Positions 44,007-45,493 of a stretch of DNA of 64,000 nt are shown piece by piece. The notes below the pieces were generated by a model. That model ran no database searches, had not been told where the DNA came from, and saw nothing but the letters and a program-made list of their open reading frames with translations. This stretch comes from Escherichia coli (GTDB lineage: Bacteria > Pseudomonadota > Gammaproteobacteria > Enterobacterales > Enterobacteriaceae), in assembly GCF_001677475.2 (NCBI RefSeq), contig NZ_CP012498.1, one strand, 5' to 3'. A program made the translations under genes and the position numbers. Within the stretch, counting starts at the first letter, position 1, and the number at the start of each line of letters is the position of its first letter.

Positions 44007-45245
44007 CTGATCTTACCCAGCAATAGTGGACACGCGGCTAAGTGAGTAAACTCTCAGTCAGAGGTGACTCACATGACAAAATCTGTATCAACCAGTAAAA
44101 AAACACGTAAACAGCATTCGCCTGAATTTCGCAGTGAAGTCCTGAAACTTGCTGAACGCATCGGTGTTGCTGCCGCAGCCCGTGAACTCAGCCTGTATGA
44201 ATCACAGCTCTACAACTGGCGCAGTAAACAGCAACATCAGCAGACTTCTTCTGAACGTGAGCTGGAGATGTCCACCGAGATTGCACGTTTCAAACGCCAG
44301 CTGGCAGAACGGGATGAAGAGCTGGCCATCCTCCAAAAGGCCGCGACATACTTCGCGAAGCGCCTGAAATGAAGTATGTCTTTATTGAAAAACATCAGGC
44401 TGAGTTCAGCATCAAGGCTATGTGCCGCGTGCTCCGGGTGGCCCGCAGCGGCTGGTATACGTGGTGCCAACGGCGTACAAGGATAAGCAAGCGTCAGCAC
44501 TGCGACAGCGTTGTCCGTGAGGCTTTTACACGGTCAAAACAGCGTTACGGTGCACCACGCCTGACGGATGAACTGCGTGTTCAGGGTTACCACTTTAACG
44601 TAAAAACCGTGGCGGAAAGCCTGCGCCGTCAGGGGCTGAGGGCAAAGGCCTCCCGGAAGTTCAGCCCGGTCAGTTACCGCGCACATGGCCTGCCTGTGTC
44701 AGAAAATCTGCTGGAGCAGGATTTTTACGCCAGTGGTCCGAACCAGAAGTGGGCGGGAGACATCACGTACTTACGTACAGATGAAGGCTGGCTGTATCTG
44801 GCAGTGGTCATTGACCTGTGGTCACGTGCCGTTATTGGCTGGTCAATGTTGCCACGCATGACGGCGCAACTGGCCTGCGATGCCCTGCAGATGGCGCTGT
44901 GGCGGCGTAAGAGCTCCAGGAACGTTATCGTTCACACGGACCGCGGAAGCCAGTACTGTTCATCAGATTATCAGGCGCTGCTGAAGCGGCATAATCTGCG
45001 TGGCAGTATGAGCGCAAAAGGATGCTGCTACGATAATACCTGCGTGGAAAGCTTCTTTCATCCGCTGAAAGTGGAATATCTCCACGGAGAACACTTTCGG
45101 GAAATAATGCGGGCAACAGTGTTTAATTATATCAAATGTGATTACAATCGCTGGCGACGGCACAGTAGGTGTGGTGGTCTCAGTCCGGAACAATTTGAAA
45201 ACCAGAACCTCGCTTAGAGCTGTGTCCATATTACGAGGGTAGGAT
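44007..45245 (+). mobile_element. IS3 element, copy B (orfA 44064..44372, orfB 44369..45217)
   Basis: Near-identical proteins to copy A in the opposite orientation; both terminal repeats recognisable. Confidence 0.9.
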
Positions 45246-45493
45246 CACAACCCCTGTCTGGAAATAAGGGGGCAAGAACACCAGAAGACCAGATTTTTGT
45301 TTCCCGCATCCACAAAGAATGGAATATTCAGGTCTGCGCAGTACTCAACGGCATCGTCAAAATTATCAAAGTGTAGAACTTCTGCGTCTTCTTCGTCAAA
45401 AAAGTCATCTTCGTGAAGCTTCACAACATAGCGGGGAAGTTTGCTTCTTTGAAGAGCGGGTTTTCGTTTACGAGGTTTAGCTGAACGGGACAT
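45245..45493 (-). CDS. N-terminal fragment of a small acidic hypothetical protein, truncated by the IS3 copy B insertion
   Basis: The minus-strand ORF runs into the IS3 terminal repeat at 45245; basic N-terminus followed by an Asp/Glu-rich segment. Confidence 0.35.
   Translation of the reverse strand: MSRSAKPRKRKPALQRSKLPRYVVKLHEDDFFDEEDAEVLHFDNFDDAVEYCADLNIPFFVDAGNKNLVFWCSCPLISRQGL

Follow-up and report, generated by a model that had tools for sequence, protein, structure and literature searches.

The window analysed here, a stretch of 64 kb of Escherichia coli DNA, carries on its minus strand a small open reading frame at 45245-45493 that lies between an IS3 element and a gene for a Rob-like regulator. 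A sequence-only reading, which stated no strand, had taken it for a gene next to the adhesin regulators that was disrupted by the IS3 copy and whose intact form and function were unknown, which raises the questions of which gene the frame stems from, what truncated it, and whether its product can still act. Two of the underlying observations were confirmed: the deduced protein has a Lys/Arg-rich tail (MSRSAKPRKRKPALQRSKLPR) at its N-terminus and, next to it, an acidic stretch rich in Phe (the Asp/Glu/Phe-rich segment of that reading), and the frame of the truncated gene does run into the IS3 end, as its TGA stop is formed on the minus strand by the 'tca' (45245-45247) that ends IS3 copy B. After our analysis, the frame is very probably a pseudogene remnant of orf121 of the insertion sequence IS91, truncated by the end of an IS2-like element (Table 1). 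Rather than an adhesin-linked gene, it represents ordinary debris of a transposon, and both the gene and the insertion sequence are already known.

Table 1. Features in and around the chimeric reading frame (positions in the window)
Feature	Position	Strand	Basis or remark
IS2-like element body, frameshifted, left part missing	43150..44007 (left coordinate approximate)	plus	NCBIfam; alignment
IS3 copy B, 1240 bp	44008..45247	plus	inside IS2-like right inverted repeat
Tip of IS2-like (IS3-family) right inverted repeat, last 33 nt, ...CCCCTGTCTGGAAATAAGGGGGCAAGAACA	45248..45280	plus	contiguous copies elsewhere
Chimeric ORF, 82 aa	45493..45245	minus	ATG at 45493, stop at 45245-45247
orf121 codons 1-71, truncated IS91 regulator gene	45281..45493	minus	homology to full-length Orf121
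IS91 left end	45494..45583	minus	sequence; homology among IS91 copies ends here
Shine-Dalgarno AGGT	45501-45504	minus	sequence
Porf121 -10 TATAAA	45527-45532	minus	sequence; box as in PMC13181058
Porf121 -35 TTGTCA	45550-45555	minus	sequence; 17 nt upstream of -10
terIS hairpin GCAGCC/GTCA/GGCTGC	45559-45574	minus	hairpin prediction
CTCGAG terminus with CTCG cleavage tetranucleotide	45578-45583	minus	sequence; PMC13181058
IS630-like fragment (left end and about the first 10 codons, MPIIVPIPRT)	45584..45714	minus	81% inverted repeat with 38218-38349; alignment
Rob-like AraC/GyrI-like regulator, neighbouring host-type gene outside the IS91 remnant	45757..46605	minus	domain matches

Origin of the reading frame

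The deduced amino acid sequence (MSRSAKPRKRKPALQRSKLPRYVVKLHEDDFFDEEDAEVLHFDNFDDAVEYCADLNIPFFVDAGNKNLVFWCSCPLISRQGL) is composed of 71 codons of IS91 orf121 and 11 codons from the right inverted repeat of an IS2-like element, followed by the TGA that IS3 supplies. Residues 1-71 were identical at 65 of 71 positions (92%, E 2e-37) to the full-length, 121-aa Orf121 encoded beside the IS91 tnpA gene in record L004, and a HMMER search for the Orf121 protein family revealed 218 clusters, some members of which are named 'IS91, orf2' or 'IS91 ORF2' in public sources. Since these residues match a conserved protein family, a chance ORF can be excluded. Differences to the common orf121 allele were found at L14, E28, V39, H41, Y51, and N67 (residues of the window). 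Scans of both the truncated and the full-length protein against Pfam and NCBIfam resulted in sub-threshold noise only and no family. The L004 protein displays V49, L55, V61, L68, V75, and C105-x2-C108 at the positions published for canonical Orf121 (PMC13181058), and the assignment of the remnant to canonical IS91 is based on annotated relatives together with these motif positions. At the nucleotide level, the remnant matched the complete IS91 of L004 by 93.75% over 304 bp, a value that refers to the L004 copy; in PMC13181058, IS91 isoforms are defined by an identity of at least 95% to IS91 V1 (X17114.5).

The sequence upstream of the frame is also that of IS91. On the minus strand it reads GAA-CTCGAG-TAG-GCAGCC-TGAC-GGCTGC-GGC-TTGTCA-(17 nt)-TATAAA-...-AGGT-AGTTAT-ATG, and the homology between IS91 copies with different flanks (the window, L002, L003, and L004) stops at CTCGAG, which the alignments identify as the terIS terminus with its CTCG cleavage site and subterminal hairpin. 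Thus, orf121 is located just inside the terIS end and behind Porf121 with its TATAAA -10 box, the position it has in IS91. Porf121 was not listed by a promoter consensus scanner, which accepts only -10 boxes ending in T. It is, however, described as the main promoter for orf121 and tnpA and as a strong one in IS91; its TATAAA box was mutated by the authors, and the expression signals were experimentally validated in the canonical element (PMC13181058). Both promoter boxes and the Shine-Dalgarno sequence are intact in the remnant, which is probably still transcribed from Porf121. With 218 family clusters and these signals at hand, the sequence-only reading was right in regarding the frame as part of a real gene, and the intact form and function it had left open are already published: a protein of 121 aa that inhibits transposition by the IS91 TnpA, promotes accurate cleavage at terIS, and limits one-ended transposition (Commun Biol 2026, PMC13181058).

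Compared to this known system (X17114; Mendiola et al. 1992; Fauconnier et al., PMC13181058), the remnant shares the protein family, the position inside the terIS end, the TATAAA -10 box, the terIS hairpin, and the CTCG site, but lacks residues 72-121 (including V75, C86, and C105-x2-C108), the PtnpA promoter, the TGATG overlap, tnpA, and oriIS. A blastn search of the complete IS91 of L004 against the whole 64-kb window matched only 45280-45583, and within this window neither IS91 tnpA nor oriIS was found. The HUH/Y2 transposase gene and the oriIS end of a functional IS91 are missing, as are the last 50 codons of orf121 and the internal PtnpA promoter. Without oriIS and tnpA, the remnant cannot transpose.

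In regard to its distribution, a megablast search with 45248-45760 in the complete genomes of E. coli and the plasmids of PLSDB resulted in more than 1700 matching records, the widely common part extending from 45280 to approximately 45587. In annotated relatives (L001, L002, and L004), this stretch makes up the 5' portion of a gene of 366 bp, called 'hypothetical protein', which immediately precedes an IS91-family transposase gene with a one-base overlap. This arrangement corresponds to the published layout of IS91, where the stop of orf121 (121 aa) overlaps the start of tnpA (PMC13181058). The block of terIS, orf121, and the 5' part of tnpA was present with at least 80% coverage in 1057 records of 814 E. 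coli genomes; most of these records are plasmids, and the annotation reads 'hypothetical protein' followed by 'IS91 family transposase'. By its conserved gene order, the true partner of orf121 is the IS91 transposase, and the proximity to the regulator reflects a lineage-specific insertion.

The break in orf121

Homology to orf121 ends between 45280 and 45281, 33 nt away from the IS3 end; base 45280 is an A common to orf121 and the adjoining IS2-like sequence, so that the junction is ambiguous by 1 nt. IS3 copy B itself is well delimited: its right inverted repeat (45220-45247) showed no mismatches to the terminal search pattern, and a 4-bp target duplication, CAAC, flanks it at 44004-44007 and 45248-45251, terminal repeats and a short duplication being characteristic of IS3. 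Along its length it is 96-97% complementary to IS3 copy A, and the counterpart stretch in H70 is annotated as 'IS3-like element IS3 family transposase'.

On the far side of this IS3 copy, an ORF at 43410-43811 matched the NCBIfam model 'IS2 transposase TnpB' (6.9e-56) and belongs to an IS2-like body that abuts an IS110-family gene (42096-43148). When IS3 copy B and one CAAC were removed and 43600-44007 was joined to 45252-45279, the resulting 436 nt aligned end to end with contiguous sequences elsewhere, found at a query coverage of at least 80% in 1257 E. coli records and annotated as integrase-core (IS3-family) genes. In the alignment with L005, the common sequence extends to ...CCCCTGTCTGGAAATAAGGGGGCAAGAACA (...AGAACA) and diverges beyond. 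Based on this contiguity and the point of divergence in L005, 45248-45280 represents the tip of the IS2-like right inverted repeat, and the element, with an IS2-type OrfB and a terminal repeat ending in ...CA, belongs to the IS2 group of the IS3 family. The comparisons thus show that the truncation of orf121 was made by the IS2-like end and not by IS3, which gave only the stop codon. The proposed disruption by IS3 copy B therefore does not hold, as IS3 only shortens an ORF that is already chimeric.

Two other readings of the junction were ruled out, namely 45248-45279 as diverged orf121 with a 2-nt deletion, as other genomes have this stretch in one piece with the IS2-like element, and a 3-bp duplication of IS3 copy B, as only the 4-bp CAAC fits its flanks and gives a reconstruction equal in length to L005. 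IS3 copy A (40640-41898), inverted relative to copy B, has a clean 3-bp GGG duplication, and copy B is approximately 18 nt shorter. The inverted IS3 copies bracket the IS110-family gene and the IS2-like remnant in a composite-transposon-like arrangement.

A similar organization occurs in ETEC-2264-type IncI/K plasmids (NZ_CP023350, L003), where IS3 in the same orientation also abuts a truncated orf121, leaving a product of 79 aa. There, IS3 is located directly in orf121 at approximately codon 78, whereas in the window the IS2-like end lies in between and the break is at codon 71; judged by these different junctions, the two truncations are independent events. A look-up for identical proteins retrieved the 82-aa chimera from about 20 draft assemblies of E. 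coli that have the gene order of the window, while an exact scan of genome contigs for the junction of the IS2-like end and orf121 found none. A sister allele with the same junction was detected in L011 (GCA_036681075.1, locus 6484-8285), in which an IS21-type element (IstA/IstB) is nested in IS3 copy B as a fifth IS layer.

In terms of annotation, what is publicly listed here as 'hypothetical protein' or 'transposase' can be corrected to IS91 orf121 truncated by an IS2-like end.

Consequences for the protein

An alignment of 21 full-length Orf121 members with 61-98% identity to the reference revealed several invariant or near-invariant motifs (PRYVV, FDxFDDAV, C51/C52, IPFFVDxGNKKLVFWFVR, EIARCTEREF, and YCPxCGTVH). 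The homology of the window product ends after codon 71, short of the 121 aa and of the stop that overlaps the tnpA start (TGATG), and this cut after W71 falls inside the invariant KKLVFWFVR strand; C86, C105, and C108 of the conserved cysteines are lost and C52 alone is kept. In addition, residue 67, otherwise an invariant lysine, is Asn in the window (K67N), while the sister allele of L011 keeps K67, which is consistent with relaxed constraint. AlphaFold2 predicted for full-length Orf121 (pLDDT 73, pTM 0.57, moderate confidence) one alpha/beta domain at residues 22-112 behind a disordered basic tail. In this model, the truncation bisects the strand at 69-75, and what lies beyond it, two more strands, a helix, and the CxxC hairpin, is lost. 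A Foldseek search of the model against the PDB resulted in no fold match (best E 0.43, TM below 0.3).

Based on the alignment and the model, the 82-aa product is most likely the peptide of a pseudogene, without function. It may be made, given the intact promoter and ribosome binding site, but it is very unlikely that such a peptide would fold or act as Orf121 does. We judged it inert because a large part of the domain including conserved cysteines is lost and no cognate transposase is present in cis.

Shortened forms of Orf121 with 26, 29, 75, and 82 aa have also been described from full-length IS91 copies (PMC13181058). They are of similar size, the 82 aa in both cases being a coincidence, but go back to point mutations or indels in an otherwise complete IS91, whereas in the remnant, another IS made the cut and the remainder of IS91 is missing. 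By function, intact Orf121 was likened to accessory inhibitors of insertion sequences (PMC13181058). InsA of IS1 and OrfA of the IS3 family are likewise small IS-encoded proteins that damp transposition, but no sequence or fold relationship to Orf121 was detected (no Pfam/NCBIfam match, no PDB fold match).

Among other decayed alleles, a 139-aa frameshifted orf121, out of frame from approximately codon 80, was present in several E. coli assemblies (P0092, P0122, and P0124). Altogether, the many fused, truncated, or frameshifted lengths of 79-203 aa point to frequent decay of orf121, and a decayed copy such as the one in the window is typical for virulence plasmids rich in IS elements.

A different view would be that the Orf121 fragment or the Porf121 RNA was retained with a role, either acting in trans on IS91 copies or damping the IS3 transposase by antisense, which would make the remnant a domesticated regulator instead of inert debris. 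The intact boxes of a promoter that is strong in IS91, together with the Shine-Dalgarno sequence, would fit such a role, as would the activity of Orf121 in trans in published assays (PMC13181058) and the geometry of the locus, in which transcription from Porf121 runs into IS3 copy B antisense to orfB. The persistence of the exact allele in about 20 assemblies, which could be brought forward as well, is accounted for by the block being inherited clonally as a whole. Since the cut lies inside a conserved beta-strand of a single-domain model with loss of conserved cysteines, the invariant Lys67 is mutated, and other truncated or frameshifted alleles of varied length are abundant, as is typical for IS decay, we consider a retained role highly improbable and regard the remnant as an orf121 pseudogene.

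Neighbouring regulator genes and nested insertion sequences

The Rob-like regulator gene is separated from the remnant by an IS630-like fragment, with 42 nt between this fragment and the regulator stop at 45757. A full IS630-like copy is located at 38218-39352, in which 38321-39352 revealed DDE_3/HTH_32 domains. The junction of terIS, IS630-like fragment, and regulator was found with approximately 96% identity in 19 E. coli plasmids of one lineage, namely pRM9088 and relatives; in pRM9088 (L001), orf121 is intact while tnpA is already truncated. The check for co-occurrence with a Rob-like regulator that the sequence-only reading had proposed thus turned out negative, with 19 records of one plasmid lineage compared to 1057 E. 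coli records with IS91 tnpA. That the frame is a host gene of an adhesin-regulator/chaperone-usher locus broken directly by IS3 copy B, as its distance of 264 bp to the regulator gene, its end in the IS3 terminus, and the recurrence of this neighbourhood in 19 plasmids might suggest, is hardly credible, as a terIS end and Porf121 precede the ORF, an IS630-like fragment follows before the regulator, homologs accompany IS91 tnpA in more than 1000 records but neighbour the regulators only in a single lineage, and the break lies against the IS2-like repeat, 33 nt from IS3. The assignment to IS91 orf121 removes a supposed novel gene from the adhesin locus and is of little importance on its own.

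From the order of the elements, a history of the locus can be proposed. An ancestral IS91 would have abutted the IS630-like fragment with its terIS (left) end, at a point that lies 170 bp downstream of the gene for the Rob-like regulator. Later, an IS2-like element would have joined orf121 after codon 71, either by insertion and distal loss or by an adjacent deletion, and thereby removed the last 50 codons of orf121, tnpA, and oriIS. IS3 copy B would then have entered the right inverted repeat of the IS2-like element, 29 bp from its tip, duplicating CAAC. We infer, without regarding it as proven, that the IS2-like/orf121 junction came first and IS3 later, since an IS3 copy 29 bp from the tip of the repeat would cripple that end; the left end of the IS2-like element is absent, so that no 5-bp duplication is available for comparison. 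The nested layers, from IS630-like over IS91 and IS2-like to IS3, would provide a relative chronology for this plasmid region.

At the outer end of the remnant, IS91 abuts the IS630-like fragment right after ...CCCAGAAC, which resembles the GAAC/GTTC target of IS91. We rejected GAAC as an IS91 target site, as it is native IS630-like sequence and the target of IS91 adjoins oriIS, not terIS (PMC13181058); the resemblance is probably coincidental.

Beyond the junction, a block at approximately 45280-48130, comprising the IS91 left end, the IS630-like fragment, and two AraC/Rob-like regulators, is approximately 96% identical to pRM9088-type plasmids, whereas the chaperone-usher genes that follow differ: the best plasmid match for the usher reached 73%, and pRM9088 has an F4/FaeD-type usher. 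This pattern suggests an exchange of the two regulators among fimbrial operons. The terIS end faces the regulator and the fimbrial genes, the side that is co-mobilised by one-ended transposition of IS91, and the ancestral IS91 could have helped to move a regulator block common to plasmids with different fimbrial genes. A sharp outer boundary of the block as a mark of one-ended transposition was not seen, as homology fades at approximately 48080-48130 in a divergent promoter region.

Further elements were identified elsewhere in the window. A perfect inverted repeat of 608 nt at 36294-36901 and 62386-62993, 25.5 kb apart, overlaps ORFs, one of which (36851-37552) has IS-type HTH transposase domains, and probably represents two identical IS copies. 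Between the IS630-like copy and IS3 copy A, a minus-strand ORF of 157 aa (39397-39870) revealed a weak match to Peptidase_C58, a YopT-like effector protease, and may be a fragment of a type III effector. Finally, tandem repeats at 53377-58312, 80-92% identical and spaced by approximately 1.94 kb, overlap IS66-family transposase ORFs and look like two diverged, adjacent IS66-type elements.
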